A stretch of 56,157 nt of DNA, counting the filler, from Dugesia japonica (taxonomy: Eukaryota): NCBI GenBank assembly GCA_001938525.1. It is 5 parts of 5 records of this genome, joined end to end, with 100 filler letters (N's around TTAATTAATTAA, not from the genome) between each part and the next. Parts side by side here need not be neighbours in the genome. Positions count along the whole stretch, not along the records: positions 1 to 12,409 come from MQRL01583042.1; 4 more parts are not named here. One strand, written 5' to 3'. The stretch's first letter is position 1. Each line of letters begins with the position of its first letter. The notes under the pieces were generated by a model. It made no database searches. It was not told the origin of the DNA and saw only the letters and a list, made by a program, of their open reading frames with translations. Shown in pieces: positions 20 through 51,700 of the stretch. The translations under genes and the position numbers were made by a program.

Positions 20-52
20 ATTCCTGACGAAGACAAGGTCGAAACATCGAAT
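20..52 (+). ncRNA. Minimal type I hammerhead ribozyme motif (Penelope-like element type)
   Basis: ATTC(20-23, stem I)-CTGACGA(24-30, core)-A-GAC/AAG/GTC(32-40, stem II)-GAAA(41-44)-CATC-GAAT(49-52, pairs with ATTC). The loopless stem III has one mismatch. Homologues occur at 52337-52365 and 54001-54032(-). Confidence 0.65.
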
Positions 53-180
53 CGTTATCCAATATCAATAAATAAAACCAAAACTTTGATCTAAGCTTTT
101 ATATTAAATGAATTCTATAAAACGATCAATGGTTATGTCCAACAATTATTCTCGCAATAATTGCAATTGTAAAACAATAA
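20..180 (+). mobile_element. Hammerhead-bearing dispersed repeat (PLE pseudo-LTR / retrozyme-like), copy 1
   Basis: The tail ttgatc-aagcttt...atcaatggttatgtccaacaattattctcgcaataattgcaattgtaaaa recurs at 26263-26355, 36920-37015, 49166-49245(-) and 53880-54035(-). Confidence 0.6.
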
Positions 181-3129: not shown

Positions 3130-6100
3130 ATGGATAATACTACTGGAAAGCAATATTATGATTATAACTATTATACACAATTGGTATATAGAATATATTT
3201 CTGCTGTATTTTAATACGTTGGTTATTTTAGGGATATTATCCACCAAAACCTACTGATCCTAAACCGAGTGAAACTAATAAGGATCCTAGATTGAGTACG
3301 CAAGAAACTAACCAAAGTAATAATAATGTAAATGCTTCGAATAGTTTGCCAGCAAGTACAACACAGTCAACTACTCAATCCAATGCTTATAGTACATTAA
3401 CAGCTCCCAGTACTCAACAATATTATAATTATTATACTAGTTATCCGGGATATTATGAATATTATCAATATTACAATTACTATAATACAACGGGTGCTTA
3501 CGCTCCTGCACCCCCTAATCCTCCGAGTGCATCAGTTCAGCCACCATTACCAGATTCTACACAATCTACTACTGACTCATCAACATTACCAACCAATGAA
3601 GAAACTGAAGCAGTACCTAATGTAACTCCTAGTGAGACAGTTAACAGTTCAAATGAATGTACCAATGAAAATACAAATGTCGAAGGTGCGATTAATAAAC
3701 CTCTAAATCAAACATATTCGCAGTTATATTATCCTCCACCTATTAATTATAGCGTTCCACCTCCATTCTATGGAAACCAAAATTATTGGAATTATCAAAA
3801 TCAATATAATAAAGAACAAACGCAACGTATTTAAAGTTTATTGAAAATTGAAAGTTAATATCTCATATGTAGAATCTTCTCAAGCCGCACCAGCCACTAA
3901 TACTCAGAACGCAGTGAAATCCAAAACGACTACTAGGCCTTCGAGATTTCAGACTCAACAAACAAAGGTGGATAAAACTATTGTTAAACCCGCCCCACTT
4001 ATTACCAAAGATGAACAACCTGAACCTACGAAAACCCCAGTTTGGCCTGATGCATTAAAGTAGTTGTGTTTTTATTAGATAAAATTATTTAGTAACTAAG
4101 TTCCATAAATTTCAGGTTAATAAATATAAATGGAAAATAAACATCTAATTAATTATTAATATTAATTTACTGATTATATATATATATATATATACATATA
4201 TTCATAATATTCTGATTTTTAAAATTTTATTAATATATTTATTTAAAAAAAACGAATTTTTAGTGTTATAATATTCTACTATCATAAATGTTCTCAGGTT
4301 ATTTTTTTATTTTCATTATTTAGATAATCAGAAACTCAATATTTTATTGTTTAGTTCAATTGCTTATAAACCAATAGTTGTCAAACTTTTTATGATTTCT
4401 TGCGTGGCGGTTATACAGAAAATTTTTAATGGCCCGCGGACCCCTTTAAAATTTACAATTTAAATTAATCATATTTACCGTTGGAAATCACCTATTTTCG
4501 TTACGTATTTTGAGCTAACTCCAGTCAAATATTCGTTATAAACTATATCAGAGCGTTGCACTTCGTAGTAATTTCTGTAAAATACATTTTATGCAAACAT
4601 AAATACCATACGATAAATGAGCGAATGCTAAGCTTCGTGAGATATCTCGGGATTGCCGATTTATCAAGGGTCTGCAAAGCCGTTCGGAATATATTTCGGG
4701 AAAGTAATCCCCTCATTGCCCCGAAAAACCGTCTCGAGTCCCCTTATAGAACCGCGGACCCCAGTTTGAGAACCACTGTTCTAAACGCTATTTATAATGT
4801 AATTAACATATCTGCAGTTCAGAAATTTTAAAATATTAATTTGGCAGCATAATTGAAGATTTTGTATTAAATAACACAGGATAATAACTCAGTTAACCAA
4901 TCATATACAGCTTGTATAATACGAAGAAATTATTACATTTTTATAAAATTTTATAATTAAAATACCAATAATTTTGTAGATTTTGAACTTATAATTAATC
5001 TTGATAGTTCTATTTTTTAACTATGTAACATCCTTGAATTAATGAAGTATATTTTCAGTAATAAGGAAAATGTTGTTTTTTTGGAGGTCAATAAAGATTA
5101 ATTTTGTAAAATGAAAATAACAATTTATAATAAAAAAAAACGAAATTATATTAAAGTATTTCTCTAGACATAAATTAAAATAAACTTGTTTATCAACAAC
5201 CCGATGTAACTAGGGCATGGTTCGATTAATGGGTTTCTTTATATAAAAAATTAAAAAATAAACATTTACAATTGAATAAAGTTGAAATAGTTAATTTTCC
5301 AAGAGACTATATTTAAATTGCATGAATGCACAACACCATATTAGTATCTCAAACATAGACCAAACATATTTTACTAAAAGATTTGAAATCAGTATCCAAT
5401 GAAAATTCTACAGGACCTCCTATTATTACTTCATTTCTTTCAAAATCAAGTACACTTTCTCCAGAATTAGTATTGACAAACATTACTGCTATTGATAAGA
5501 TACAATTTGCTACATTTGCAAACAGTGATGACTTAATAAAAAGGAGAGACATTAATTAAATAAGCCATCCAGCTCTAAGAAGTAGTCAAAATCAAGTGGA
5601 AATTATTGTTTGATACTTGTGAATGATTTTCTTTAATATTAGACGAACGGACATCCGAAAATTAATCGTGTAAAAATTTAACAAAACAAATTTAAATGTT
5701 TATATTTTTCAATAAGTGACTAACTTGATATTTATTTTCTCGAATCTTTCCGGAACAAAACATCTAAAACAATAATTTGAATTAATATTTAAATCAAATA
5801 AAAAAAAATCCATAGCTGATGTCGCCAGTCATAAGAGTTTTACAAATAGAATTTTTTGCGAGAATAATAGTCAGATCGCATTTGAGATTTCAATAAAATA
5901 TAAGATTCGATAAAAATTTTCTTTTCGTTCTTTTTATTCGAATTTTCGACTATTTAATATTTCAACAACTAAAAATATTTCAACAAATAAAAAACAAACA
6001 AACAGATGTTTTGAAAATTTTTAGATTTACTGAGAAATTAAACGAAACTAGAACGATTTTTTTTTTCAATATCAGAAATATTAAAAATCTCAGAAAAATA

Positions 6101-8564
6101 ATTGAATTTGATTTTATTTAATCACTTTTATCTTAAAATTGATAATATTAATTTAATATTATTTAAAAATGTAAAACAACCAAAATTAATCGGTGAAAAA
6201 CCTCGATTAATCGACCATGACCTAGATTAAACTAATTAAAACGAATCATAATAGTAAAGTCAATATTCTAGTACCTTCTAAATTCTCCAAAAGATTTGTT
6301 ACAAATTATAGTTATNNNNNNNNNNNNNNNNNNNNNNNNNNNNNNNNNNNNNNNNNNNNNNNATAATCTATATCATTGTTTCTCAACTAGTGGTCCATGA
6401 ATTTCTTTATATTTATTATATAGTTTTACAACCTTTAAATGCATTATTATTCATTTTAAATGGCAAAATGAAAACCGAACACTTGCTTACCGAACAAAGT
6501 CGTATGTACTCGTCTCGTGTAATTGCGTGTTTACATTTGACAGCACTGCTTGTCTGTTGTAAGAAATGGATGTTTTGTTATTAAAATTTAGGTAATTAGT
6601 CCGTTAATTGCTAAGAAAATCTGAACTTTCTCAACTTTGTTATGCAACTTCTTATGTGATTCGCTATTCAAGCTTAAAATTTTTATTGAGAAACACCGAT
6701 CTATATTGTGTATAATTTTGGAATTTGGAGAATCTGGTCTACACTATAATTTTTCTTAAGCTAATATGAGATTATTTTATGTCTTATTAGTTAAATATAG
6801 TATTTTGTACTCGGTCGTTTAGATACAATTCGGTCATAAAATAAAAAAAATATTATTTGGATGTAAATTAAAAGCTAAAATAAATTAAATAATTTTATTT
6901 TGTAGAACGCTTTTAACTTTTGACTGAGATCTTCAAATTGATAAATAGTTTAAATGAAAACTTTAATATAAAGATTACTATAATATTTTCATTTCATAAT
7001 TAAATGTTTGTCCTGTGAAATTCATTTTCTGCAATTTTCAACTTACATTTTATTCTAACTTTTAACAGGCCTTTGTAATTTGACATGCTACGTAGATAAC
7101 AAACAAAAATGGCTGTTNNNNNNNNNNNNNNNNNNNNNNNNNNNNNNNNNNNNNNNNNNNNNNNNNNNNNNNNTTTGAATTTGTAACGAATTCGGTTACT
7201 TTTCAACACTAATTATTGTTTGCATGATATTTATAATAGCTTAAATAGAATGATAAAATATTGTGTTTTTGGTCATTTATGTATAATTTAACCCCTTACT
7301 GCATAATTTACCATATATGGCACAAACATATTATTTGTAAAATAGACAGGAAAAGGCATATACATCATAAATATATTTTTTGGCCATTCATGCAAGAAAT
7401 TTAGTTTGTTTTTAGGTTTAATTGATTTTTGTGAATAATATAGTATTTGTGCCACATATGACCCACCATGCGGTAAGGGGCTAATCACAAACTCGGTAGT
7501 ATATACGTATTAAAGGTTCAAACAAAAAAATTCAATTCTTATATTTGAAGTTTGTTATATAGATATCTACAGCTGTGACTAAAATTATTTATTCCTTTAG
7601 TAAACAAGTGAATGAAACATTTTATTACAATACACTTCACTAAGGGTTACAATTGGAGCTTGTTTAACTGTTTCGTATTCAGTATTGATTAGCACTTTGA
7701 ATTCATTTCGTGTACATAATACATTTTGTTTTGTCTGATTTTGAAAGAAAATCGTCATTTTAGTAAAGGAACAAATACTTTTAACCACAGCTGTTTATAA
7801 TATTTTGGAAATGTTAAACAAAATAATAATTTTCATTTCAGATTTTTGTAGAAATATTAAATGGCTTTAAAAGTGCGGTCCTTTCAACCTCACCATAAAT
7901 TAAAAAAATGTACGGGTTTAATTGATATCCTTTTTAGAAATTACGTACAGCGTTCATTTAATAGTGTGGATGAAGAAGATAAAGATAAAATGCAGGATTT
8001 ATTAAAGGATAAATTAGAGAATGCCTATAGTAAAGACATGGTGAATAAAATCGATTGGAGCAAAGAACCGCTACCGAAAATACCTCCGCCACCAACAACA
8101 TCGCAGTCTAGTAGTGGAAATAAAAGTCAAAATTCCAAGAAAACATACGGGTAATTGATTGTATTTATTTGTTATAAAATTCATAGTAAGTTAATGGAAA
8201 TAAGGTTGCAAAAAACGAGAGTTTTTTCACCTAATCTAAATCGATCGTCAAATACATCACAAGAAATATCTAGTAAATCAAGTCGGCGAATTTTTATGGG
8301 CGGTCGTAATACATTTAACAGTCACGCATCGTCAAGAAGTTCAAGTCGATCTTCCAGTTCTCGGCGTAAACGATCATCTCGTCGTCGTAGAAACCGCAAA
8401 CGCTCCAGATCTGATTCTGATGATTCTTTGCGAAGTGATCGGCGCTCTTCGTCACACGATTCACACAATGATACTCGTGAAGTTGGAATGTCACACAGAA
8501 AGTACAGGAAATACTCATCGGAGTCAGATCATAAATCAGACCACTTTTCAGATGCTGAAAAAAG
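3130..8564 (+). CDS. LENG8: LENG8/THP3-like (SAC3/GANP family) protein, 5' part; exons 3130-3183, 3232-3826, 3873-4059, 7938-8150, 8187-8564; 3' exons not found in this contig
   Basis: All junctions are GT-AG and phase-consistent (introns of 48, 46, 3878 and 36 nt). The spliced product has a Tyr/Pro/Gln-rich N-terminus, then WPDALKNYVQRSFNSVDEEDKDKMQDLLKDKLENAYSKDMVNKIDWSKEPLP. This matches the LENG8 block WP..MK.YVERCF...EEDKD...LLKE.L......IDWSREPLP. A GGRN.F motif and an Arg/Ser-rich region follow. Confidence 0.85.
4372..4778. mobile_element. hAT (Charlie/Buster-type) MITE in LENG8 intron 3
   Basis: TIRs caatagttgtcaaact / agtttgagaaccactg; 8-bp TSD ttataaac (4364-4371) / ttctaaac (4779-4786). 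Confidence 0.8.
5211..6224 (-). mobile_element. Non-autonomous hAT element with decayed C-terminal dimerization-domain relic
   Basis: TIRs tagggcatggttcgattaat / attaatcgaccatgaccta; flanks gatgtaac / gattaaac (6/8). ORF 5349-5552(-) FANVANCILSIAV...SGESV resembles the hATC dimerization motif. Confidence 0.7.
6374..6698. mobile_element. hAT MITE with perfect 8-bp TSD
   Basis: TIRs cattgtttctcaa / ttgagaaacaccg; TSD atctatat at 6366-6373 and 6699-6706. A second family member lies at about 39002-39358. Confidence 0.85.
7292..7480. mobile_element. piggyBac-type MITE
   Basis: TIRs ccccttactgcat / atgcggtaagggg flanked by TTAA / CTAA; subterminal inverted repeat catatatggcacaaa / tttgtgccacatatg. 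Confidence 0.75.
7570..7793. mobile_element. Tc1/mariner-type MITE
   Basis: TIRs cagctgtgactaaaa / ttttaaccacagctg, with TA on the left flank. Confidence 0.65.
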
Positions 8565-9279: not shown

Positions 9280-9510
9280 AATTTAATTAAAAGTTAATGA
9301 AAAATTAATGAAATTAAAAGTTAATGACAAATTAATTAATTTAAAAGTTAATAAAAAAATTAAAATAAAAATTAATGAAAAAATTAAATTAAAAATTAAT
9401 GAAAAAATTAAATTAAAAATTAATGAAAAAATTTAATTAAAAGTTAATGAAAAATTAATGAAATTAAAAATTAATGAAAAAATTAAATTAAAAGTTAATG
9501 AAAAGTTAAT
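9280..9510. repeat. AT-rich minisatellite, unit of about 23 bp (aaaaattaatgaaaaaattaaatt-like)
   Basis: Visible tandem degenerate copies. Confidence 0.8.
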
Positions 9511-9666
9511 TTCAGATTTCAATAAATTGAAAGCATCAATCAAAATGTTTTTAATTTCTTTTTTGGTAGTTATCCGCATTTTCGACTGTCCAGAAATAGA
9601 CAACAGTCGAAAATTCTGATAACTATCAAAAAAGAAACTAAAATAAGATCGAAGCTTTTTATTTAA
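9511..9666. repeat. Palindrome made of two head-to-head fragments of the hammerhead repeat family
   Basis: tttcttttttggtagttatc..attttcgactgt (9555-9589) is inverted as acagtcgaaaat..gataactatcaaaaaagaaa (9603-9637). The arms continue into the family gatcgaagcttt motif. Confidence 0.7.
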
Positions 9667-10400
9667 GTATTATCGATTTTCATTATAAATACTGGAAAAT
9701 GTAGTGATTCTTAAAAATTTATGAAAAGCTTAACTAACTCTCGAACACTAAGACTTCTATTGGATTATCTTGGAGCTTGGTACTTACACATTTATCATCC
9801 TTTCTAAAATTATTGATATAATCAAGATTTGCATTGCTCATATTCTCTTTTTATAGAATATTTTTATAACACCCAAGTTGGTAGGTAGATAGTAACTCAC
9901 TTCACGTTCCCTGATGATATCATGTGCTATAGAATTTCTTGTTTGAATCGATTACACCACTTTTTAAAAACATTTTCTGACCGATCCCGAAACTCTAGTT
10001 TAAATATTCAAAAAATGTTTATCAATGTAATATTTAAATAGTTTTTATATTTTAACTGATTTACATAATCTTTATTATCAATTTTATAATATTCAACATC
10101 GGGTCCGCATTCGCGGGAATCCTTAAAGGCTGAAAAATGTTAACAAAATGAAATTTAAAATAGAATNNNNNNNNNNNNNNNNNNNNNNNNNNNNNNNNNN
10201 NNNNNNNNNNNNNNNNNNNNNNNNNNNNNNNNNNNNNNNGGAAATTTTCTTCGATCGATAGATAAATTAAATACTTCACTAATCTTATTTAAGCTTGTCA
10301 AAAATTTACAAGTTAAAGGTTAAATATCAGATATTTATTTACAATTATTTTCCGTTTTCTTTAATTCTCATTATTTTAATTTCTATTCCTGCATTTTAAT

Positions 10401-10750
10401 TTGTATTCCTGCAAATCCTCTCATTTTAATTGGTATTCCTGCAAATCCTCTCATTTTAATTCCTTTTCCTGGAAATCCTATAATTTTAATTCCTTTTCCT
10501 GCAAATCCTCTCATTTTAATTTGTATTCCTGCAAATCCTCTCATTTTAATTTGTATTCCTGCAAATCCTCTCATTTTAATTCCTTTTCCTGCAAATCCTC
10601 TCATTTTAATTTGTATTCCTGCAAATCCTCTCATTTTAATTCCTTTTCCTGCAAATCCTCTCATTTTAATTTGTATTCCTGCAAATCCTCTCACTTTAAT
10701 TCCTTTTCCTGGAAATCCTATAATTTTAATTCCTTTTCCTGGAAATCCTA
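10401..10750. repeat. 30-bp tandem minisatellite, about 11.7 copies, two main unit variants
   Basis: Unit (ttgta|tcctt)ttcctgcaaatcctctcattttaat with no spacers. This explains the repetitive ORFs on both strands. Confidence 0.95.
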
Positions 10751-25130: not shown

Positions 25131-26262
25131 CCTATAGTTGTTAAATAAATTAATTTTTTTAGTGAATTTCAGATGTCTTAGAAATAAATAAACTGAAAGC
25201 AATATTTATATGTTTCTATCATTCTTGGTTTTTATAAATAAATTTTTAATAAACCTTAAAGTGGTATAACATTTCATGATTTATAAATTTTCACTAGAGT
25301 AAATTTTATACTGATCAACATTTTATAACCTATTAAATTTTAATTTTTAAATAAGACAAAACAAAATCAATTAGGATAACTATCAGACATTAATTCCATG
25401 AATTCGGTATTTTGAAATTCAATTATTTGTAGCTTTACTACTATATTCAAAACGTAAGGTGCTTTGTAAATAAAACACAAGTTATTTATTTAATCGTCCA
25501 AATTTTCTTTTGTATCCTTCAAAGTAATCCATTCCCGTTGCCAATCCAATCTTTGAAACACTTTTGATATTTATTGTTTTGAATTTTCATTAGTAATTGG
25601 TTTCTGGCCTTCGGGGTAATCCCTCACTAACGCAATCACATACAGTTGCTCCTAAATATATACATTAGATTATGTAATCGATGGGTGTAGATTATAGCAT
25701 ACACTTATGATATATAATTACGCCATGATTACATAATAACTACATGAAAACTCAAGGATTACGAAATTCGTGTTATTTTTATCGTAATGACGTCATCTAT
25801 TACGTGACCACTTGGAGATTTTAATTTTTCACGGAACTTCGACGAGAAAAAACATTTTTTGTTTAAATTAACCAAATTTTTAAATTTTTTCAAAAATAAT
25901 GTCTTTTAGAAACCATCAAACTTTGAAAACCAGTCTGTTTTTATTTTGCTCGAGATCATTTTTGTTAAAATTATTATTTTTTCAACAAAATATAATTTCT
26001 CAAATTTTATCATCAGCCCATCTAATTGATAGAGAATTTTACACTGAATCAATAATATCTTAGTTAAAAATGTAAAGAAGATGAAAAGTATAGAAACTTA
26101 AAAAGAATGTAATGTAAACATTTTAGTTTAAAATAATTTTTTTGAAAAACTAAATTAATGATAGAGATAAAACCAGAGAATTCACGAATTACACAAGATA
26201 AATATGTACATACCGAAAGAATAATATAACTACCAAAAAGAAATAAAACGANNNNNNNNNNN

Positions 26263-26355
26263 ATTTTGATCGAAGCTTTTAATTTGATGAAATCTCAAAT
26301 GCTATCAATGGTTAAGTTCAACAATTATTTTCGCAATAATTGAAATTGTAAAATT
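26263..26355 (+). mobile_element. Tail of the hammerhead repeat family (5' part lost in an N run)
   Basis: ttttgatcgaagctttt...atcaatggttaagttcaacaattattttcgcaataattgaaattgtaaaa. Confidence 0.6.
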
Positions 26356-34942: not shown

Positions 34943-37900
34943 ATGGAATTAGTTAATTTACAAACGTATTCTGAAAAACCGATAACTGATGACACCATGA
35001 ATATAATTTCGGTACGTTTGAGAATTGATTATGAAAATAGTCCAAACAAAAGCAACGAATGTCCAACTCATATTAATAGTGAAATTTCTCATTATTGTCG
35101 GGATTGTCGATGTAAAATGTGTTTAAAATGCTTCGATCAACACAAAACTCACGATACTATTGACAAAAACTTCATTATTCTGGAAAAAATTGATAATATT
35201 TCTGGAATTATTGAAAGATTTTATGTTATTAAATCTGATGTTATGGATATTATATCACAGTGTGATCAGCAAAAAATAACAATATTCGAAGTAAGATTAT
35301 TGGTTTTTATAAATGCTATTTTTTACACAGAAAAATGTATTATTTTTGAGAGTAAAATATTAAAAAACATTGTGAGGAATTAATTTTTTTTATAAAAATA
35401 TGTTAAATTTAATTATTTATATGTTTGATTGTAGTTTCAAATGAAAATTAAAAAGAAAGAAATTCTTTTCACAATTTTTAACTTGAAGAGTTTAAAAACA
35501 CAACATGAATATATGTAAATATAAATGTAAATTTCTATGATAAACAATTAAATACAAAAAACATAGATAAGATTAGACTTTATTATACATTACTTCGTAG
35601 GGTTTTTGGTGATATTTCATAATCAATCTGTTAATTTTCAATAGATTTCATATAGAATCCATGATAACAGTTTGTTGTAGACATTTGTGTTCTAATAAAT
35701 CTGATTTGGCGAAATAATGTTCTGTTTTATAGATTAATAGATTGATTGGATCATTTACCCTGGATTTTTGTAGATTACATTTTATTATAAATGTTATTGA
35801 TTTTTNTTTACAATTATTACTTGTAAAAATGAATTTCATTGGTTAAAAAAAAAATTTAAAAGGTCTTTAAAATCTCGTGAGTATATTTTTAAAAAATAGA
35901 TTATGAGAATTCTGAGTAAAACAGCATACGTAAAAGAAAAATCAATTCTCAAATTATTTTTTTGAAGTCTAATAAAAATCTAAAACTTTTAAACTAAAAT
36001 AAAATATGTAAAAAACGATGGCAAATGTTTAATAAAAAATAAATAACGCCATTCTTAATTTTTAAGTTCAACAATTTTTCAATAAAAATTTTTTTCTATA
36101 AAATAATATTTTATTAAAAAATATATTTTTAATTTTAAATTATATTAAAATTTTTTCATTAAAATTTTTCAAAACTAATAAAAAATTGAAAATTATTTTA
36201 GAAACATGAAAAAAAACATGAAAATATATTAAAATTTCAAAAATTGAAAACTTTTTTTTATCTACAATTTTTTTAATTAATTTAGTAGAAAGAGCTAGAA
36301 AGTCTCTATAATAATGCTTGAATTATGAAATCTAATTGATTAACGCTTCATACAAATCTCTCTCCCAGTAATTTTTTATATGAAAATAAATAAAAAAAAT
36401 ATAATATAATATAAAATATAATAAATATAATTTATTAAAAAATTAAAATATATTTTATAAATAAAAATTTATAAATTTGTTCACACAATACACGATATAA
36501 TTATATTTTATTATGAAATCAATAATCTAAATATATTTGTTAACGTTATTTTCATGATTAAAGTTAATCTCAATCAATTTTCATGTCACTCAAAAACAAA
36601 CCGGCGAATCGCCAGCTAAGTGGCTCAATGCTAAAATGACATTGGCCGGTCATTCGCCGGCTTTGTATTGCGATGGGTTAATTATTTTCTTTGTTTATTT
36701 CATTTATTTATTATTTACTTATGATTTATTTTTTTTATTTATTTATCAATAAATGGTGTTTATTTATATTATCATACTCACCAATTTTATAAATTAATCT
36801 ACATTTATATTTCCCCGGTATTATTTTTCGATAAGTCCTTGATTGAAAAATAATTTTGTAAAATCAATAATAGAAATATTTCATTAAAAGCTTCGATCAA
36901 AATATCAAAAACAAAAAAAATTTGATCAAAGCTTTTATTTTAATGAAATCTGAAAAACAATTAACGGTTACGTCCAACAATTATTCTTGCAATAATTGTA
37001 ATTGTAAAACAATAAAAATACTATCAAAATGTTCGAAATACTTTCATGTTGAGTTTTGTATTTTAAAAATATTCTATTATTATAAGTGATATTTGNNNNN
37101 NNNNNNNNNNNNNNNNNNNNNNNNNNNNNNNNNNNNNNNNNNNNNTTGTCAAAAATGTAAATAAACGTATATATTTTCTACGTGTATATGTATGTTTATT
37201 TTGCGTGTATGAACAAATTTTTTGAGTCCGGAACAAAACTATAAATTTATTGTAAAATATTTTAAGCATTTTAATTTAATTTATTATTTTAAAAATGTTT
37301 AAACTCAGGAATAATTTCCTTTTAAAATTCGTGTTTTGAATTTTATTAAATCTAAAAGGTATTCGTGAGTTCTAAGTAATTTTATTTAAATCAAATTTTT
37401 AATATTTGAAAGATTGTTTGAAATTTTCTTGTTAAAGTTTTAAATCAAATATTTTCATTAAATTATACAATTTTTAAAAATAATTATTCTTATTGCCCGC
37501 GAGAATTTACCTGCAATTTAATTGGTGGATATTGGATCACTTAATTTTAGTAACTCACTTTCAACCAATCGGAGTTTATTTATGTTTCGACCAATCCGAT
37601 TGCATCAAATTCTCTAGATCACTTCATCAGTGTAGATGGGATGATCCAGTGCGCCACTATCTACTCACCATTTGAGTTTATTAAAATTGGGTTTTCAAAT
37701 TAATTTCATTAATAATAATAATTTGTTTAAATAATTATTATAAAACAGAAAAATATCAGAAAAGCAATTAAAAAGCAAAAAGTAGAAAAAAATTTTGAAC
37801 CTAAAGAAACGATCAAATTATGAAATGAATAACAATGTTTAAATTTAAATTTAATTTAAATATAAATTTAGATATTTTGTTTTTAATTATTCAAATGAGA

Positions 37901-40900
37901 ATTGATAAAAAATATTATGCTAATCTCGATTTTATATTCGATAAAACAAATAAATTTTAATTTTGATATTAAATCAAATTTTAATGTTAAATTTACAAAA
38001 ATATAAAATATTATAAAAATAAATATAAAAATAATACAAAATTATTTTATTGAAATTTACAATATTAGAATATGTAAACTATGGGTCCGCAACCTATGGC
38101 ACGCGTGCCAAAAGTGGCACGCAAAGGAAATTTTTAAAAAGTTAATTAAACTTTATAATTTGTGNNNNNNNNNNNNNNNNNNNNNNNNNNNNNNNNNNNN
38201 NNNNNNNNNNNNNNNNNNNNNNNNNNNNNNNNNNNNNNNNNNNNNNNNNNNTATATGAAAACTTGCTGCATAGCAATATTTGTTAAATTTTTGTGTTTTA
38301 AATAATAACAAAAATTTTTATACAAAGGAAAACTTTGACCCCTATTCTATGCAATTAAATTCCAACACAAATGATCAGACATTTCAAAAAAAAAAACAAA
38401 AGGCGATGTGCGAGCTTACAAAGAGAGTTGGTAAGAAGAATATGGATTTGTTTTATTTAAAGATAAAGCATTATGTGTGTTTTGTTAAAAAAAGTGTTAT
38501 ATGTCGCACATCGAGTGTATAAACACATTTTCGCACAAAACACCAGCAAAAGTTTTCGACTGATGATGAAAAGAGATCATATATCACAAGAGCAATTGAA
38601 GAATATAAGCAGCAAATCACAGTTTTCCGCCAGACGTTATGTAGTAAAGAAAGAGCAACTGAGTAATAGGATTTTAGCAAAATTTAAGATTTAAGAATTA
38701 ATAAAAATCAAAAATAAACGAATAATAGAATCATGATGAATAAAAAGAAAATGTGCACAGTGATTTAGGTTTTTAATGTGACAAATCGAAAATTTTAAAT
38801 TCAACTTATCAAATTTAAGTAATTCAATCCTAAATGAATTTGTAGATTTGTAACTGAAATCAATCTTCGAATTAAATTTTGATTAAATGATATAATTAAT
38901 TAGTGTCAATAAGATTGTGAATTGCACCTATCTGTAACGTGATATCGCACAAATAAGAAAATATTGATTTTTTTAATGGATTTTATTAAAGATGGCATTT
39001 TTAGCAGTTTCTCAACTGGTGGTCGGCAGAAATATTTTAGTGGTCTGTGAACTTCTTTATATTTGTTACATAGTTTTACAACCATTAAAATCATTATTAA
39101 TCGTTAATGACAATAATAAGGCATACAACTTAGAAAATTGAGTACTTCCTTACCATATAAAGTCGCATGTACTCGTCTCCTACAATTACAAGTTTACATT
39201 TGTTAACACTGTCTGTCAGTCGTATGAAATTGGTGTTTTGTTATACTGTACCTAGAATTTAGGTAATTAGTCCGCGAATTACTATCAAAACCTGCACTTT
39301 CTCTAATTCGGCATGCAACGTTTTGTGTGGTCCACAATATAAGCTTAATATTTTTATTGGTTCTCAATATCATTTATGCTGATAAACATGGTTTCATAGG
39401 AATATATACTAACAATATAAAATAGCGTTTCTTGTAAACCATAACAATTGGTTTTTGTATGATGATAGATGTTGATAGAAATTTTCAATTTATAATTCAT
39501 AAAAAACCACAATTGACATTGATTAAAATTGCGACAATTTCATTATTTAACGGTCACTTCAACAGCTTTTAATTTCGTAATATTTTGTTTTACATTGAAC
39601 CTTTTAAAAATAATGGATTTAACCACGATGAAGTTTGAACAATGACATTTTATTTTTTATGTATATGCTACAGGAGTTTCAATAAACTAAAAAGGATTTT
39701 CTTAAATTTTTTATTAGAATTTCAAGAAGATTGTTGAAAAGGAAATTGATCTAGAAAATCTAAAAAAAAGATTCCTTCACTAAAGTTATCGACGAACGAA
39801 TCACACATTAATTTAAAGCAAATAAAACTGTTTAGAATGTCCGTAAATAAAGAGCATAGTCAAACGATGTCATAGAAGAAAGGGTAATTGAAATATGTTG
39901 TCAAAATTCAAGAACATCTGTTTGGTAGGCTCTTCGTGAATTAACTATATTTACGCTAAAGGCCACTATTATGGACTGAATTTAGTATTGAGATTTATGT
40001 ATTCGGGGAATGTATGAATGGTTGTAGATAAATTGGTGTGGACAAAAGTGAAAAAAATCAATTACTTAACTCTTTCACATTTTTAACAAATAAATCATCA
40101 TTTTTTCAGACCTTGACCTTATCAATCAAAATTTGACTTTTTGCCCTTAACTTTACGTAAAATTCATCTTCAAAAAATTTGTATTTTCATTTGAAAAACT
40201 TTCCTGTTTCATGCCTGTCTTCCTCCACTTTCTGAATGATTTGATTCCCTTTTTGACACATTTGTTTGGCAGAATGAGGTTGATCTTTGAAGTTAAAATT
40301 TCCTGAGAGACATCGAGCAAACCATTCACGGACTATTCTATCAGATACAGCATGTACACCATAAACTGCACAAATCTTTCTAGCAACCTGCAAAGCATGA
40401 AATAAAATTTCAATGTGTCGAATTTCTTCATTATTTATATCTATTTAAAAAGACTAATAAATTTTTACTTATTAATCAAATATCAAATTTATATCGAACT
40501 TTTTTAAAGCAATTTGAATGTAATGATTACAAGATTTTAAAATTTGAAATATTTCAACAAATTTAATATCCTTAAAATTATATACAGAACTTTTTCGTCG
40601 CCTATTCACAAAATGAGTGGAAATTTTTTAGACAACCTAATATATAAATATTTATGCATTTAAAAACTTATTATATAATACGAAGTAAATATTAGGTCAT
40701 TAAGTACGAATGTTGAATTTTTAATCAAAATTTAGGAAAAAGCAATACATTTAATCTAAATATGCACCAAACTTATTGACATAGTTCTGCCATCTTAATG
40801 ACAACTAGTTTATTCCAGCAGCGAAAATTTCTGGTGATAGAGTGGTGATAAAATCACGAAAGGCGTTTTTTGCAGTCTCATCAGATTTGAATCATTTTCC

Positions 40901-43900
40901 CACAAAGAAGTTGTATGATGCATGAAAGAAATGATAGTCTGTTGGAGCAAGGTTTGGCAAATACGGTGAGTGATATTGAGTTTCCAATTCCAACCCTACA
41001 GTCTGAGTATAATTGCTTGGACCACATTTGGCGGAGCGTTGTTTTGCAAGAGGATTGTCTGTCTTTATTGATCAATCTTGGCTGCTTAATCGCAAGCAAT
41101 TTCGTCATGTCGTTCATTTGGTTGCAGTAGACATTAGCTGTAATGGATTGACAAGGTCTCAAAAAGCTGTGATGATAATACCAGCGCTGGACCACCAAAC
41201 AGATATCATTAGCTTCTTTTGGTGAATATTCGACTTGGGACTTTGTTTTAGTTCTTTATTTTTATCCAACCATTGAGATGAACACTTACAATTATCGAAA
41301 CGAATCCATTGAAGAAATTATTCGCCTTTATGCCGTAACAGTAAAAGACGATTTCTTCTTTGCTGATTGCTTAATTCATGCGGAGCCAAGCAGTTTAAAA
41401 ATTTGACCTTATTAATTTGTTTTAAATGGTAGATTATTGTTTGGGTGGAAACGCTGAACTTTGCTACTAATTTGAGAGTATTTTGAGAAGGATCTTCTTC
41501 CACCAACACTTTCAGATATTCGTTATTAACCTTCGCCTAAGGTCGCCCACGTGGCTTATTTTCGAAACTAAAATCACCAGAACGGAATTTTTGAAACCAT
41601 CGCTGTATCATTCGTTCATCGACGACATTCTTGCTTAACACTTTGTTTATATTTAGAACTGTTTGCCTTAAATTGGTTCCACAACAAAACTCAATTTCGA
41701 AAATAATACAAATTTTTGACGTATCCACTTTTTCTGAATATTCGATATTAAAAAGACAATTTATCATATAATCGGAAATAAAACGTTTGCTTAAAAGAAT
41801 AATGGCGTATTTATACAGTCAAACCAAAACAAATAATTATCAAGATCAAAAATTAAAAATATCGACTGTCAAACGTTAGACTTCTGAACATCCGAAATTT
41901 AATACTTAATGACCTAATTGTATTACAATGAGTAGATAATATTTATCTGAAATCAGTTAGAATTGTAAAGTTGTAAAGTTATTTTTATGAATTTAATGAG
42001 AAATCTTTTTTAAGAAATTAAATAAATTCTCAGAAATTTAAAGATTGATATGAATTAATCTGAAAATTCCGTTATCTTAATTTGCAGATACATATGTATC
42101 TGAGATTGTTCCAATTCTGGATATTTAAATAACTCTAAAATGTAAATCAACAATGAATAACTTTCATCCCATAATCAAAATCTATTATAAAATTTATGAC
42201 TTCTATTATATCAATATTTGCATTATTATTTTAGTCTGTATTTATTTACTTACATTAACATTTTGATGCATGATTTTTTAAAAGCCTTTTAATAACTATT
42301 AATCAAGTATCGAATAAAATTATTTTCTACACAAATTTTGACGTTGAAATAATTTTTTATAGGACCAAAAGTCATCATTGGAAGATATTGAATCGAAATT
42401 CGATAAATTGCATTCAGAAATCGATAATTACAAAAATGAATTACTAATGGAATTGCAACAAGTGGTCGATAGTTGTTTGTATAGATTGGAAACCAATAAG
42501 AAAGAATTATTAGCTTTAAATGATGACATATCTAGTATAACTAATTTGGTGGCTCAAAATTCTTCGGCATTTGAAAATGTAATTTATTTTGAATTTATTT
42601 TTATTTTTTATCATTAAATACTAAATAATTTTTTTTATGAATTAGTATGAGGAATTAATTAAGAAACAATAGAATTATTTGGAATAATTTATTGATTTTC
42701 TCTACTGTAACAGCAGTAATTTTACATTTTAATTTTTGAAAATAATATTTATAGATGTTCCATATTTTTATATATTACAGGAAAATATTGATAAATAGTT
42801 ATATTTAACACAGATATGTACTCAAAATAAAAAAATTCTAGATTGTTATAATACATACGATATGCATGACAAATTATTTAAACAATATATTATTGGAGTA
42901 ACTTTTATTTTATTATTTATCTTATCTTATATTATCTTAATAATTATAATAATAATANNNNNNNNNNNNNNNNNNNNNNNNNNNNNNNNNNNNNNNNNNN
43001 NNNNNNNNNNNNNNNNNNNNNNNNNNNNNNNNNNNNNNNNNNNNNNNNNNNNNNNNNNNNNNNNNNNNNTAATATTAAAAGTAATATTAATAATAATAAT
43101 ATAAAATATGAAATAATATAAATCTCAAAAAAATTTGTTTTATATTTATTTGTTTCTTTTCATTACATTTGGAAGAATTCTTATTAACGGTTAAATAGAT
43201 TTTTAACAGAATTTATTTTGCAAACTTAAAATGGATGATATATAAAAGCATAAATTATTATTTTACATTTTTATATTTATGTTAATTCAATTGAATTGCC
43301 TAGCAATGAACAATTGTTTAGTTTATCACTATTATTATTTATTTATATTTCTTTTAGTATATTTTATGTTATTGACTTTATGCGATATTGAGAGATTTAT
43401 ATTAATAAATCTGTTATTTGATAAAACGTCTATTTAATTTTCTATCTTTTAATTTTGCAATCAGTAATTATAATGTAAAATTTTATTTATTTTCGTTGAC
43501 ACATTTTTTATGTTGATAATATATCAACTAAATTTTGCCTTCTTGATATCTTAACAAATAATTTGTTTTGATGGGTTGAAAACATAAAGCTTTATATAAC
43601 AATTAATCCTGGAAGAAGAGTGTCGTAGAAAATTTGTATAACTTACAAAAACTTAAAGATAATCTTTGGTTATATGGTTTAAAATGCAAAGTGAATGCAA
43701 AATTAGTGGGCAATGGCGAGCGATGAAAGGTTATAACTTGTATGCCTCATGAAAGTATACCATCTAAACGTTAATATAACATCAACCTAAAACTTCTACC
43801 TTTCTTTTTGCACATACATTCAGTCACAAATTGCGAAATTTTGTTTTTTCGTCCACAGACTTCATTAAAGAAGAGGTCTCATTATATCTTAACCTTTTCT

Positions 43901-46778
43901 AACTATTTTTATTCTTATCCTTATTTATAAGTGTGTTAATTCAACAGTAAAATTATATTTCATTGTAGTACTGAATAAGTAGAAGAAATTAACGAATTTG
44001 TATAGATAGGTGATGGAGTCAGTGCAATATGCCAAAGTGGGCCATGCCGAAAAAAGGTTGGAAAACATTGGTTTACATTTTAGTAAATTAAAAAAGTGAG
44101 ATCAACAATAACTAATCACTAATTAATACATTCAAATGATTATACCATGTTGATCGTATTAGTTGTTTTTATTTATTTATCTCGAGATAACCCTATCAGT
44201 AAAGACAGTAGAAATGAATATAGGGTTTTTGCGTAAGGATTTTAATTTATTAAAGTTAATAAAAGTGATTTATTGTAGAAGAATAAATTTCGAAATATTT
44301 TAAGTATGAAATATTTAGACAATTATTTTAGAGATAATGGATATTAGCAGATAATTTGTTTTACTCAAAATCAAGAGACTAACCAATAAAGTGTATTGAT
44401 TGTAAAAATAGGTTTCAATAATATTAAAAAAGAAACTTGTACAACTGTTTGTCTTTCCCAAAATCTAACTACATATTCGTTCACTGAAAAACATTTAAAA
44501 ATTTCTAATCCGAGGACCATTCAAATTCGTCTAATAATACAATGATTTTAGCAAGCATTTTCAGTTTAAAATGTCAATTACAGATTAAAAAACATATAAA
44601 TAAGTGAATCATCTAAAAAATCTTGAAATGTATTTACAAAAGTATACAGAACTATTCACAGGCATATAGTTAACTTACGATATTCCTCTGATAGAGATGG
44701 GTATGACATTGAGGAAATTAGAATCGAACTATTACAAGTATACAATACAGCATGAAAAACCGTCTACAAAGTATTGATAAACAAACTGTTAAAAAAATCA
44801 AAAAATAAAATCAATTATAATAAGAACAACAAATAAATCAGGCAGATTGGTAATTTATCAAAACAGACTTACAGTGAATTTATTTCACAACACCTACAAA
44901 AAGCTACTAAGAACTAAACGAAATAAATTTAAAAACAATTAATAGGAATAGATAATATATATCAAGATCATCTCAAATCTTTATTTCTAACAGTAAAATG
45001 TCACGATTTCAATGTACCATAAAAGAGCATAAATTATATTTTAAAGGAATACCTATTATTAATGCTTCTGACACCTTTTCAACTGCATTTTTCAAACTTA
45101 TGGCCAATATATTGAAGTCAAAATTAAGTTTATTTACTGCATATCTATAGACTAATCTGTAATTTATTGATGATATATTTGAAAATGTCGCCTGAAAATA
45201 TCATTGAAAGATACTAGGAACATACATATTTTTTAGGAAATTACCAAAATTAATTTCAAATATCTTATTAATTTATATCACTTTTCGGATAGCATCTGTG
45301 CCGGTAATAAAATTTACCGATAAATTTTGGTTTGGCATTGAGTAACAAGTTGTCTTCTATTCTATATGTAATCTTTATGAACTTCATCGAAAAAAAGAAA
45401 TTTCTAAAGCTAATAAGAAAATTTATCTATAATTTGTCCACAAAAGTATTGTTACAGTTACGAAAAAAAAGAAAAAGAATATTTTATTGAATTAAAAAAC
45501 AAAAACCACTTTTCAAAGTACAATCCATCATTAATCATCACTTTCTGCCATCGGTCTGCAAGTTTCATAATATGGCCAAAGTAACATTCTGGCATCTTCG
45601 AATGAAAGAACTGTTGACAAACCTCTTCAACTTCATCAAATAATTCAAATTCTATGATCATAAAATAAGTACTACATATATCTAAAAAGACCGTAGTCAG
45701 ATGGTATAACGTCTGGATTGTATGGTGGACATGGTAAAACCTCGACATCGTCTAACTTTTCACATTTCTCCTTAGTTTTCTTGGCAGCGTCTGGTTTGGC
45801 GTTGTTTTGGTGAAACAAGGCGAGATTCCGATGGACTAAAATCTAATATTTTCCTACCAAATATGGTCAAGTTTGCCGACGACCATTCAGAACTATTTTG
45901 AAGTGCAAAATATCTTCAATGTTTCCCCAGACTAAAATAATGATCTTCTGGTCAAATCGATCTTGACGTGNAATGGACGGGGTTGCCTAGCGTTGTGGAA
46001 TCCAGTTCTTTTTTCTATTGAGATTTACCAGAAAGACCAACTTTACATCTATTGTCACAATCAGAATCGATCATCGAATGGATTTCTGAGCAGTCGATCA
46101 CAAATTTCTATTCTTTTGACTACTTGTGCCTCAATGAGGTTGCGTGTATCTTAACTCGGCTTTTGTTTGAATAACCAAGTTGCTGAAGATATCGATGAAT
46201 CATTTATTTGCCAGCCCCAAGTTTAGATTCCAAATCGTGAGTACTTGATGCTTGTTCGGATTCTAAAAAAGCTTCTAATTATCCATCATCCGACTTTGAC
46301 GGCCAACTGCAACAAAAAAATTTATCTGAGATACTGAAAAATCCTAGAATAATATTTAAAACTTAAGCACCTTAACACATTCGATTACAGAAACCAAGGT
46401 AATAATTATTTTGGTGTCAAATACATTTGTGATGGTAAAAATATTTATATCAAATAATAAACACTTTATGCAAGGATAAATATACACGTATAATTATCGG
46501 AACAAAAATAAAGGAACATCTCAAGCATAAAAATGTGAAGTATAAAAAGACTGTTCTCGTGACAAATAATAGGGACAAGCTACGTTTCGACTATACAAAA
46601 AATCATGAAAAAATAGTAATTAAAAAACAAGCTTAAAATCAGCATATTAATAATTTATAATAAATTGAAATAATAAATAATTCATTCTAATTATTTTTAG
46701 AAGGACATTAATAAATTAGAAAGTGAATTCCCGAATAAGACTATTTGTCGAAAATTCAGATATTTAACTAATAATTAA
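34943..46778 (+). CDS. RING-less B-box zinc finger plus coiled-coil (TRIM-like) protein, about 213 aa; exons 34943-35290, 42363-42578, 46701-46778 (last exon tentative)
   Basis: B-box2 CPTH-x8-CRDC-x4-CLKC-x3-HKTH. Donor GAA|GTAAGA, acceptor ttttatag|GAC. Exon 2 is a heptad-rich helix (LEDIESKFDKLHSEIDNYKNELLMELQQ). Donor AAT|GTAATT, then acceptor tttttag|AAG leading to TAA. All junctions are phase 0. Confidence 0.75.
36878..37015 (+). mobile_element. Hammerhead-family tail preceded by an inverted copy of its own 5' part
   Basis: atttcattaaaagcttcgatcaaaat (36878-36903) is inverted relative to atttgatcaaagctttta...aatgaaat (36920-36949). Conserved hairpin at 36978-36998. Confidence 0.65.
38080..38700 (+). 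mobile_element. hAT (Buster/SPIN-like) 5' end with decayed N-terminal zinc-finger region
   Basis: Terminal ...caacctatggcacgcgtgccaaaagtggcacgc; the frames give YVCFVKKSVICRTSSV*THFRTKH. Confidence 0.6.
39002..39358. mobile_element. hAT MITE, same family as 6374-6698
   Basis: Shared blocks gtttctcaact.gtggtc, atgtactcgtctc, tttacatttg and aatttaggtaattagtccg. Confidence 0.75.
40187..40640 (-). mobile_element. mariner 5' fragment (TIR plus HTH region)
   Basis: ARKICAVYGVHAVSDRIVREWFARCLSGNFNFKDQPHS; TIR ...gacaacctaa followed by TA at 40641-40642. Confidence 0.85.
40692..41917 (-). mobile_element. Near full-length decayed mariner element with pseudogenised transposase
   Basis: TIRs ttaggtcattaagta / tacttaatgacctaa with left TA; 1226 bp. 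Fragments RWFQKFRSGDFSFENKPRGRP, APHELS, KKLMISVWWSSAG and LAPTDYHFF, with stops and frameshifts. Confidence 0.92.
45430..46330 (-). mobile_element. Decayed mariner transposase (boundaries approximate)
   Basis: Fragments HQNNAKPDAAK, PPYNPDVIPSDYGLF and IMKLADRWQKVMINDGLYFE. Confidence 0.85.
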
Positions 46779-46951
46779 AAAAATTTTTTTAATACGCTTT
46801 AAAATTTTATTGAAAAAAATTAATGTTTTGAATAATCTTAAAATCATTCAACCGTTGCGTTTTTTTATAAACAAATATACAAATAGCAAAATATAAATAT
46901 TGATTATTTTAGAAATGGTGAAAATTAGTTTTCAAAAATTGAAACGTTTTC

Positions 46952-48705: not shown

Positions 48706-51700
48706 TTATCTACTACATTTCTCATAATTCTTTATTAATTTGAACATTTTCTGCCATGCTTCTGACTTTGAAATGCATAATGATCCGCCGCCACGTTTAA
48801 ATTGACTTTTCTATAAAGAAATAAACATTTAAATAAAAATTAATGAAATAAAATTTAATTCACCATTCTATTTATGTCGCCGATACAAACATATGATAAT
48901 TTCTGTGATTGAGAAATTGCCCATTTTGAATGATCTGATTTACTTTGATAGACTTTATTTGTGAAATTTATTTGATCAACATTGTTTACCTTGAAAATAA
49001 TTTAAGATTTTCANTGAAAATATTTTTATTTTAATTAGTTTTTAAAATTAAATCTCTAAATTTCTTCAGAAATCGTTGAATAAATTCTCATATTTCAAAA
49101 TATTTAATAACTATGTAAACTTAAAATTTCAAAAATTATTTTTAAATATTATAAATAGTGTCATATACAATTACAATCATTTCTAAAATAATTATTGAAC
49201 TTAATTATCGATCCAATCATATTTTCAAAANATCCAAAGTTTGGAAATTTTCAACAAAAAAGTTAATGAGAAAATAATTTTCAGTTTTTTCGCGAAATGA
49301 CTTGATTCATTGTATCCATCGAAAAAATTTTACTTAGTATAATTAAATTCGTTTTCCTTAATGCAATTATTAATAATATCCAGTCAACAATTTATAGTTT
49401 TCAGGGCCGTACTGTAACCTTTGGGGGTCCTTTGCAAACACTAAAAAAAAAATTTTTAATTTGATGGAATTCATTTTTATTTAAAAATTAATAAGAAAGA
49501 AATTATAAAGGAATTTTTCTAGATCTTTTGCTGGCAAATTCATCAATAATATCATTGTAATCAATGTTTCTGGCTTTAGCATTTTCAATCGACAGTATTG
49601 CTAATCCATAAAGTGTCATAGTAGAGCGTAGATAATTTTCAATTACTTTTAGTTTTGAAAACGATCGTTCATAATTAGCAACGGTAATGGTTGTTGTTAA
49701 AATTATTCTGTTGAAATTTATTTTCTGTTGCGTTTTATTTATTTTTGATTCTGATTGAGCAAGATTGATTAACTTACAATTCTTTTTGCCAAGCTCATAC
49801 GAATTGGTTCTCTTTAAAATCGGTTTTCCCGAAATTTGAAATTGTAATGTTTTTTCATCGTATTCTCGCTATTCATATTCTAACTTTAATAATTTTAATT
49901 TAACACCGAAATTTTTTGGCGTTTGATTTAAAAAAAGTTTTATAAAAAAAATATTTGGAAAACATTTAATTACAATGATTTCTTATTATTAAACCTTTTA
50001 TAAAATGTATTAAAGGTGATTAAATAAATCTAACTTTATATTTTAATTGACATTGAGAATCCAATTTTCCGCCTTTTCCGTTTGTCCATGTTTCAACAAA
50101 TAGTGAATCATTTAGTGATGGTGCAATGAGTCCACTGTATAAGTCTTTACTAAGAACATTGATAAATGTTGAAATTTAGCATATTTAAAAGATTAATATC
50201 ATCAAATTTTTTAAATGTATGTCTTGATTATAGGAAATATTAGGTAACCAAAATTTTGGATTATTATATAACAAGCAAAAATAATACATTAATTCAAAAT
50301 AGGCACTAATACTACCGACACAGTTCTACCATCTTAGTGGAAACTGGTTTATTGCAGCAGCGAAAATGTCTGATGATAAAGTAGCGATAAAATCAAGAAA
50401 GTCGTTTTTCTCAGCCTCTTCAAATTTGAATTATTTTCCCACCAAGAAATTGTCTGATGCCGGGAAGAAATGATAGCCCGTTGGAGTAAGGTCCCGAGAA
50501 TATGGTAGGTATTCAATGGTAGATTTCCAATTCAAACCCCTTTAGTTTGAGCAGCATTGCTTGGACAGCATGTGGTCGAGCGTTGTCTTGCAAGAGAATT
50601 GACCTGTTTCTATTTCGGCTACTTAATTGCAAGCAATTTATCATGTCACCCAATTGGTTGCAGTAGACATCCGCTGTAATGGATTGACCAGGTTTAAAAA
50701 AATATTTAATGGATAGTACCAGCGCTAGACTACCAAACAGAAACCATTTGATGAATATTCGGCTTTGGACTCTGTATTTGTGCTTCATTTTGATTCAGTC
50801 AGTGAAGTGAGCCCCTTCGATTATCGAAACAAATCTATTTTTCGTCACATCTCATGATACGTTGAAGAAATGGTTCGCATTTATGTCGTAACACTTGTTA
50901 GAATTGATGTTTCTTAAATTTAGTGAATTCATAAAAATGAAGTCTAAAATCAATTTTCAAAAATTATATATTTTTAAAAACTTCACACAACAATTACAAT
51001 ATTAGAACAACACATTCTTCTGAGGATTTCTTCATCTTCTTGTAATTTAATAAAAATCGATTCATCTTACATAAAATACAAATATTCGAAATTTATCTAA
51101 ATATCATTTTTGATTTCAAATCATTCAATTATTATTTTTGTGAAACTCATTTTAATTCTATTTATTATTTTTAAATTTGTAAATCTCACAACAGTAAAAG
51201 AACTCTAGTTTCGAGACGTATTCTTTTCTGATGGTCGGTTAATTATTGCGGAACTAATCAGTCTAACTTTTTGACCATGTCAATTTGTTTTAAATAGTTA
51301 ATTATTGTTGGAATGGAAACGTTGAAATTTGCCGCTAATTTGAATATTAAAAATTTCGACTGTCAAACTCTGGACTACAATCAATGCAAATTTAAGTAAT
51401 TTAGTTTATTTCACTTTTGTGCACGCCAATTTAATTACAACCATTAATACATTCACTCAGTTTGTAATACTAAATTCGGACTACTGTAGTGGCCTTTAGC
51501 GCAAACAGGGTTTAAAAAATCATCAATATAAATTTTGAAATATAAATAAAAAATGGAATGAACATTTTATATTGAAATATGCAAAAATTAATTACACATA
51601 TACATATTATGTTATTATTATTTATTAATTAAATAATTAACATTAATTAACATTTTTATGATTAAACTACCTTCATTGTATTTAGGTGATTTGCCAAAAT

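Follow-up and report, generated by a model that had tools for sequence, protein, structure and literature searches.

A short dispersed repeat of Dugesia japonica with a minimal hammerhead motif of the Penelope-like element kind and two defined ends

Minimal hammerheads and their carriers

The closest described relatives of the repeat treated in this article are the minimal hammerhead ribozymes (min-HHRs) in the pseudo-LTRs (pLTRs) of metazoan Penelope-like elements (PLEs). Min-HHRs are marked by an extra base after position 9, the pair G10.1–C11.1, and a palindromic helix III (Cervera and de la Pena 2014, PMC4209133). The motifs barely cleave alone and were dispensable for insertion in vitro (PMC4209133, PMC11167929). 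The repeat of Dugesia japonica shares with them the core of CUGANGA and GAAA-NN-UH, the extra base, G10.1–C11.1, and a palindromic helix III without a loop. Like them, it occurs as thousands of single dispersed motifs and in opposite-strand pairs (PMC4209133). With 3 to 4 bp, its helix II is shorter than in most min-HHRs and similar to the C. briggsae row in Fig. S3 of the same paper; the Schmidtea mediterranea motif of that figure belongs to a different sequence family. The carrier also differs: min-HHRs sit on variably truncated PLE ends (PMC4209133), whereas the Dugesia motif sits on a discrete unit whose 5′ end is fixed, ~5 nt ahead of helix I. Dispersed minimal hammerheads in thousands are already known; the defined 5′ end and the unit length are new.

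Non-LTR retrozymes (PMC7229834; bioRxiv 10.64898/2026.07.22.740005) are likewise short, non-coding, and low in GC, carry a type I hammerhead, occur as dispersed monomers, and are proposed to be non-autonomous PLE derivatives. They are defined by tandem arrays of at least two hammerhead units and characterised by plentiful monomeric RNA, both linear and circular, and those of PMC7229834 have canonical hammerheads and circular RNAs. The repeat, by comparison, shows no array, carries a minimal motif, and has few tandem joints, which are not constant. The Poseidon PLE of Anolis (PAc; PMC11167929) resembles the repeat in a hammerhead ~100 to 150 nt upstream of the 3′ end, a terminal stem–loop, AT-rich targets, and no RNA ends at the cleavage site. 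However, PAc is autonomous and has two reverse transcription (RT) start sites that define a 30- to 40-nt tail, whereas the repeat has its two main ends only 4 nt from each other and is without a linked ORF. Among the Chlamys PLEs of Chlamydomonas (PMC8557442), MRC1 and other non-autonomous members parallel the repeat, as read below, in being non-autonomous and mobilised by a PLE. Unlike it, these members form pLTRs and head-to-tail multimers, and most Chlamys elements are without canonical hammerheads. Further literature for comparison is found in PMC6155905 and PMC6431247, and the FASTA supplements of PMC6515669 hold reference PLE proteins. No description of the repeat family was found in the literature searched, a scope without most subscription papers, Repbase, and Dfam; the supplement of PMC8557442 gave 0 matches for Dugesia, Schmidtea, and three short motifs.

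As the unit is short, highly abundant, and defined at both ends, the boundaries of the RNA template can be read from it directly. It could separate three sources of that template, namely an own promoter, the 5′ end of an autonomous mRNA, and a circle. On the plain reading, annotation would gain a further PLE-dependent repeat family. In this planarian, RNAi and the mapping of RNA ends are routine.

Extent, ends, and copy number

The window, meaning the whole stretch of 56,157 nucleotides that was analysed (filler included), consists of five segments, taken to be separate contigs, which are joined by N44-TTAATTAATTAA-N44 linkers. Its GC content is 25%, and introns are short. At its start lies the reference copy of a ~165-bp dispersed repeat, which spans positions 13 to ~174–178 (+). 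Reads and contigs of public Dugesia data sets were mapped to positions 1–345 of the window at 80% likeness. From two DNA data sets, both genome-sized, 27,918 (X1) and 27,526 (X5) contigs mapped to the repeat, and with ~28,000 contigs per data set the original prediction was right to call the family abundant. The summed depth in X1, which the mapping tool does not equate with copy number, is 0.57 to 3.9 million over 13–180 versus 6 to 31 over 193–345, and the repeat thus stands at ~10^5 times the depth of its flank. Over the last 21 bases, the depth declines near-linearly, at ~147,000 to 152,000 per 31-mer in X1 and 166,000 to 176,000 in X5. Dividing the depth per 31-mer by a single-copy depth of 9 to 20 yields a rough estimate of 7,000 to 19,000 copies, in which older and diverged copies, like most of those in the window, are probably under-counted. 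A floor is given by the at least 757 X1 contigs whose loose ends fall on 174 or 178.

For the full-length copy (13–178, +), the steps in depth together with the loose ends and the joints place the 5′ end at 11–13 and the 3′ ends at 174–178, so that the span of 20 to 180 first assigned to the element has to be replaced. The X1 depth jumps from 17,000 (1–12) to 681,000 (13–24) and climbs ~threefold toward the 3′ end. Loose ends before 13 number 170 in X1 contigs, 160 in X5 contigs, and 137 in X22 raw reads, and the agreement of their flanks is 0.46 to 0.47, the level of unrelated AT-rich flanks. With this fixed 5′ end and these unrelated flanks, the element is non-autonomous as to form, as had been proposed. 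At the other end, 558 X1 contigs have loose ends at 174 and 199 at 178, again with unrelated flanks (agreement 0.45 to 0.47). The main 3′ ends among the loose-end rows listed are 174, 175, and 178, to be compared with the optional 30- to 40-nt tail between the two 3′ ends of PLEs.

Seven of the 15 joints listed connect opposite strands, and four of these seven terminate precisely at 13 (to 85, 98, 104, and 106), which makes 13 a family terminus and more than the break point of one copy. The 6 to 8 letters adjoining 13 are TTTTAA-like in all three majority lines; hence, the true end may lie a few bases upstream, or the letters may be due to a preferred target. A search for target-site duplications gave only A/T runs of 5 to 7 nt, and these were rejected as chance. 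Since both ends are fixed, the repeat is likely a short passenger of a Penelope-type element and not a broken-off piece. An origin of the repeat by chance or as an assembly artefact was rejected on the basis of shuffles, resampled windows, and the mapping of public data.

The hammerhead at the head of the repeat

The reading of the head as a minimal type I hammerhead motif of the PLE kind is supported, with self-cleavage being predicted from sequence. The 5′ strand of helix I, CAAUUC (18–23, +), pairs with the 3′ strand at 49–54 (+) in the pair table, with five of six pairs in the reference copy and all six once the family U at 53 is considered. The core CUGACGA follows together with an extra A (A31) between positions 9 and 10.1 (24–31, +), as seen in both the sequence and the structural descriptor. 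Helix II (32–40, +) comprises 3 bp, GAC/GUC, herein G10.1–C11.1 corresponds to G32–C40, and a 3-nt loop, loop 2, that contains the variable site of the head (position 37, G>A, 22%). GAAA, the loopless helix III, and U16.1–C17 occupy 41–48 (+), where helix III reads ACAU in the reference copy and palindromic AUAU in the family. By hammerhead numbering, the cleavage site is predicted between 48 and 49. The initial classification as a minimal type I hammerhead is therefore retained for the family, which has the CUGANGA...GAAA...UH core, G10.1–C11.1, and a palindromic loopless helix III. Helix I is 6 bp long in the family, has 5 of 6 pairs in the reference copy, and is reduced to 3 bp in the copy at 54029, which was counted as agreeing with the short helix I (~3 to 5 bp) of min-HHRs. 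Rfam returned no match at gathering scores and no hammerhead family at E ≤ 10 in 1–400. In single copies, the hammerhead is not the minimum-energy structure (z −1.26 to +1.06 in four heads), as is expected for a motif without loop 3.

Two near-fixed differences distinguish the family from the reference copy. A change 45 C>T, present in 99.5 to 99.6% of the mapped depth, creates the helix III palindrome AUAU, the C at 45 breaking a helix III pair in the reference copy itself; a change 53 C>T, present in 99.7%, completes the 6-bp helix I. Both are mismatches to the query and thus cannot be a search artefact. Among the 126 single substitutions in 13–54, four add a pair, so that two of two would occur by chance with p ~5e-4. 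Because both differences restore pairs, the hammerhead appears to be under selection in the source copies. Older window copies use another palindrome, AAUU, and AUAU/AAUU constitutes a covariation. This AAUU palindrome is found at five of the six window family sites with GUC-GAAA versus one of nine unrelated GTCGAAA sites, with a background of 27%.

It had been suggested that the core should be conserved better than its flanks. This holds insofar as no X1 change of at least 5% falls on a catalytic position among 24 listed of 29 (C17>A reaches 2.5%) and the near-fixed changes restore pairs. It does not extend to the comparison of head and tail, with variable sites at 1 of 42 versus 13 of 124 positions (p = 0.12), a comparison that is confounded by mapping to one subfamily and was rejected as evidence of core conservation.

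The tail

The AT-rich tail (55–178, +) contains a hairpin and an ATG. The hairpin, 143–150/156–163, sits just before the 3′ end and is weak, with z −1.29 in the reference copy and −2.37 in the copy at 36975. The ATG at 108 opens a frame up to the 3′ end in two of three copies. The 48-aa frame holding the tail peptide had no match in two protein libraries, a weak test because about half of the query is element-derived. Patterns of tail and head gave 0, 1, and 0 matches in viral and prokaryote collections; the single match (L074) is without the GAAA half and was ascribed to chance.

Copies in the window

The complete core pattern CUGANGA-A-GAC-loop-GUC-GAAA-NN-UH has two matches in the window versus 0 in 100 shuffles, and the structural descriptor has two, whereas 200 Markov-resampled windows average 0.005. 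Three copies had been described as sharing the motif. The cores at 24–48 (+) and 54029–54004 (−) are indeed complete, but 52337–52365 reads GCC-AAAA and thus misses G12. The second complete core belongs to a decayed full-length copy (53882–54040, −) with an AAUU helix III, U17, and a 3-bp helix I. Its tail is weakly recognisable, 70 of 500 shuffles scoring as well and E being 1.1 at the expected spacing. The helix II of this copy (54008–54024, −) is a perfect 10-nt palindrome and could pair between two molecules.

The pieces first noticed at 9598, 26263, 36920, and 49166 are real, and a tail-only profile yields eight matches at E ≤ 0.033, six of the eight being its own seeds and the best E in the reversed window being 0.06. 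The first is a copy with a broken CUGANGA, an intact GUC-GAAA-AU-UC, and a partial tail (9589–9668, +), which stands head-to-head with an inverted partner, a 5′-truncated copy that begins in helix II (9510–9587, −). The extent of the second had to be revised, as it continues upstream over an N gap to ~26215; it is a 5′-truncated copy from behind the hammerhead to the 3′ end with an 11-N gap inside (26215–26353, +). The third comprises element positions 61–180 at 85% identity (36901–37015, +; blastn E 9e-32), is 5′-truncated, and adjoins an inverted 5′-truncated arm from element position 85 (36870–36901, −; blastn 85–118, E 0.005). The fourth is a 3′ tail fragment (49166–49213, −; blastn E 3.5e-5, profile E 0.01). 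The earlier listing of ~7 copies was incomplete. Apart from the inverted pieces at 9510–9587 and 36870–36901, it was without a copy that begins in helix II, reaches the 3′ end, and has lost an internal piece (5837–5951, −; nhmmer E 1e-9 as a non-seed, 0 of 500 shuffles) and a decayed, head-only copy with the same 5′ motif start, a broken core, and an AAUU helix III (46720–46780, +; nhmmer E 4e-4). Repeat pieces fall in four of the five window segments, in line with the reported spread over four contigs.

The similar head without G12 at 52337–52365 (+) has an unrelated tail, and this tail has an inverted partner of its own at 52260–52318. The tail does not align to that of the family (415 of 500 shuffles score as well; no match to the tail profile), and it is probably a sister family or a chimera. 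The region 52260–52419 as a whole shows a G12-less hammerhead-like head in a head-to-head inverted pair with a different tail, possibly a second PLE-derived family. Two further stretches were left out of the copy count, namely a weak head-like match at 43607–43659 (+; E 0.086) and, at 37630–37585 (−), a stretch of the form CTGATGAAG...GTCGAAA in which helix II is not properly formed.

RNA and the state of the template

In the oligo-dT data set X22 (~25% of reads scanned), 2,202 repeat reads were found on both strands, 96% of them continuing into unlike flanks; X21 (~6% of reads scanned) gave 62, again on both strands and with 92% continuing in this way. These reads fit passive transcription within host RNAs. 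RNA ends do not pile up at 48/49 or anywhere else in these cDNA and oligo-dT libraries, which are of kinds that would miss small circles and cut monomers. Full-length copies retain 13–48 upstream of the predicted cut, which implies a template that was uncut or religated. Taken together with the rarity of tandem joints and the missing RNA pile-up, this retention makes an uncut template likely. Min-HHRs are characterised by weak self-cleavage in dimeric form, and for the monomeric min-HHR, PMC4209133 reports no cleavage.

Two changes in the region 60–92, 72 A>T (58%) and 80 A>T (78%), dominate the X1 DNA depth and are found in 1 of 146 and 1 of 252 cases, respectively, in X22 RNA. A young and homogeneous subfamily may be silent; strain differences or the alignment of short contigs are alternatives.

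Link to Penelope-like elements

No GIY-YIG/RT partner had been visible in the window, and this was upheld. Pfam searches of 125 of the 130 ORFs of at least 58 aa (five low-complexity ORFs were left out) detected no GIY-YIG and no PLE RT domain, only Ty3-type RT, mariner, and hAT pieces, and tblastn of the window with four PLE proteins from metagenome loci gave a best E of 0.87. An autonomous EN+ PLE has an ORF for RT and GIY-YIG between pLTRs; the window contains none, and the unit found is 165 bp long with unrelated flanks. The signs of mobilisation by a PLE, 5′ truncation and an inverted 5′-truncated partner copy (a PLE trait; PMC8557442), are present, with seven of the 15 listed joints being inverted and pairs in the window at 9587/9589 and 36901.

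A scan of metagenomes with the core pattern returned 73 loci, 24 of them full minimal hammerheads. Eight of these 24, from ~4 independent families, lie close to a same-strand ORF for RT and/or GIY-YIG, and a ninth has one at 4.6 kb. PLE RTs are likewise present at two further loci, in which the palindromic helix III is longer; the other 47 loci gave no RT/GIY-YIG match. As the metagenome loci stem from other organisms, they show only the association of this core variant with PLEs. Within the autonomous PLE families so found, and in contrast to the repeat with its unrelated flanks before 13, the sequence ahead of the hammerhead (70 nt printed) is visibly common to most copies, although in one family, two of 12 copies break off within ~10 nt of helix I.

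Two of the loci, L017:1339–5378 (−) and L059:158–4789 (+), are marine-metagenome PLEs by a minimal hammerhead in which a NADAR and GDSL-like ORF lies upstream of the RT and GIY-YIG ORF. In L038, L068, L071, and L056, minimal hammerheads are directly followed by CCCAAC-type or TTTCC stretches, and L068 also has GATTAC repeats. The CCCAAC-type stretches resemble the telomere-type ends of EN-minus PLEs.

Origin of the repeat

What is observed is the size of the repeat, its ends, its high copy number, the anatomy of its hammerhead, and the presence of 5′-truncated and inverted copies. We give an even chance to the repeat being a minimal unit of a PLE that is non-autonomous and depends for its copying, in trans, on a PLE reverse transcriptase–GIY-YIG protein. 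Herein, source copies would be transcribed from ~13. The PLE protein would bind the tail and nick AT-rich DNA, and reverse transcription would begin internally at 174–178, just behind the small hairpin. The hammerhead without a helix III loop would stay uncut as a monomer, so that full-length cDNA would reach 13 and keep the whole motif. Incomplete or template-switched synthesis would give rise to truncated and head-to-head inverted copies, and most genomic copies would be decaying monomers that are transcribed only inside host RNAs. The anole PLE is described as starting RT internally in vitro, in a stem–loop that lies downstream of the hammerhead, on RNA that is uncut and at targets rich in AT (PMC11167929). 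The weak point of the trans-copied unit is that there is no obvious reason for a never-cut hammerhead to be conserved across subfamilies of a purely non-autonomous element. More tentatively, and with a chance clearly below even, the unit may represent the minimal cis-acting core of a PLE, its 3′ end marking the internal RT start and its 5′ end either the place where the PLE mRNA begins or the completion of exactly one round of an RNA circle. In that case, many single minimal hammerheads of animals would be defined units and not random truncations.

The conserved yet uncut hammerhead and both fixed ends would be accounted for if the copies were by-products of the mRNA of an autonomous PLE, reverse transcribed from 174–178 inside the start of an ORF to the transcription start at 13. 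There would then be no separate non-autonomous master, and the hammerhead would be kept for the autonomous element. The anole PLE has a hammerhead that overlaps the beginning of its ORF, and its RT starts ~111 to 118 nt into the ORF on pLTR–ORF junction RNA (PMC11167929). The frame from the ATG at 108, open in two of three copies, would suit such an origin, as would the position of all four listed indel rows at 60–73 and none in 108–174. It is nevertheless doubtful: the listed variants in 108–176 fall mostly on second codon positions, a non-coding pattern; an open frame of 22 codons is common by chance; no sequence is shared beyond 174–178 (agreement 0.45 to 0.47); and the protein searches with the 48-aa frame, although weak tests, were blank.

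The original prediction had likened the repeat to retrozymes with cleavage as dimers. In such a cycle, rare tandem sources would be cut by dimeric hammerheads, and the monomer 49–174/13–48 would be circularised and reverse transcribed once round from 174, resulting in copies of 13–174. This would give the hammerhead a job and explain the palindromic helix III and the AUAU/AAUU covariation; dispersed monomers of retrozyme families are described (bioRxiv 10.64898/2026.07.22.740005), and a few tandem joints lead to 13 (from 160, 174, 177, and 184). However, the tandem joints listed have depths of 7 to 28, corresponding to single loci, and linkers of 0, 12, 18, 19, and 31 nt, whereas the cycle predicts a constant direct joint from 174 to 13, of which there is none among the joints listed. 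Neither a tandem joint in RNA reads, nor a copy of more than unit length, nor a tandem copy in the window was found. Consecutive tandem units with hammerheads, which characterise non-LTR retrozymes, are accordingly missing from the window and represented only by single-locus joints among those listed, though short contigs may hide arrays. Given these inconstant joints, the retained 13–48, and no RNA ends at 48/49, the dimer cleavage cycle is not sustained and is regarded as improbable.

A rise in depth of ~threefold toward the 3′ end would also be expected if the copies were pLTR remnants, ordinary 5′-truncated 3′ ends left by an autonomous PLE that is abundant and whose truncations cluster just upstream of the hammerhead. 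Single min-HHRs are interpreted in this way in PMC4209133, the two of 12 copies of the metagenome PLE family that stop within ~10 nt of helix I provide a precedent, and helix I is preceded by a U-rich stretch and an AG that resemble the intron end of the D. virilis PLE (PMC4209133). Against this, the flanks upstream of 13 are unrelated in contigs and raw reads (0.46 to 0.47), and several independent inversion joints fall exactly on 13, which renders such remnants quite improbable.

Helitrons end in TC...CTRR. A non-autonomous DNA element (MITE or Helitron/Helentron derivative) with a captured pLTR piece would share the fixed ends, shortness, AT-rich flanks, hairpin near the 3′ end, and lack of poly(A) and target duplication, but is highly improbable in view of a sequence with no terminal inverted repeat and no TC...CTRR ends, the frequent 5′ truncation with constant 3′ ends, the head-to-head inversions, and the maintained hammerhead pairs. 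Classical SINEs have a tRNA-, 5S-, or 7SL-derived head with a Pol III promoter. This class was rejected for the repeat, in which no tRNA and no Rfam match were found and the head is the hammerhead motif.

Other features of the window

The window further contains a DNase II exon (51621–51905, −). Among 66 candidates it matches Dugesia japonica DNase 2-1 alone, with 94% identity across 73% of the query, which places the host among the Dugesia planarians. For an exon that we take to be TBC1D31-like, one search found no relative, and another returned only B-box clusters. Among mobile elements, there are decayed mariner copies at 40190–41818 (−) and 50232–51505, 75 to 77% identical to each other, a Ty3-type RT fragment at 54887–55228 (−), and a hAT dimerisation-domain fragment at 49506–49868 (−). 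A second dispersed repeat of ~300 bp is present at 6388–6688 and 39038–39359 with 75% identity, and a tandem repeat at 10350–10750 is built of ~30-bp units with frames open on both strands.
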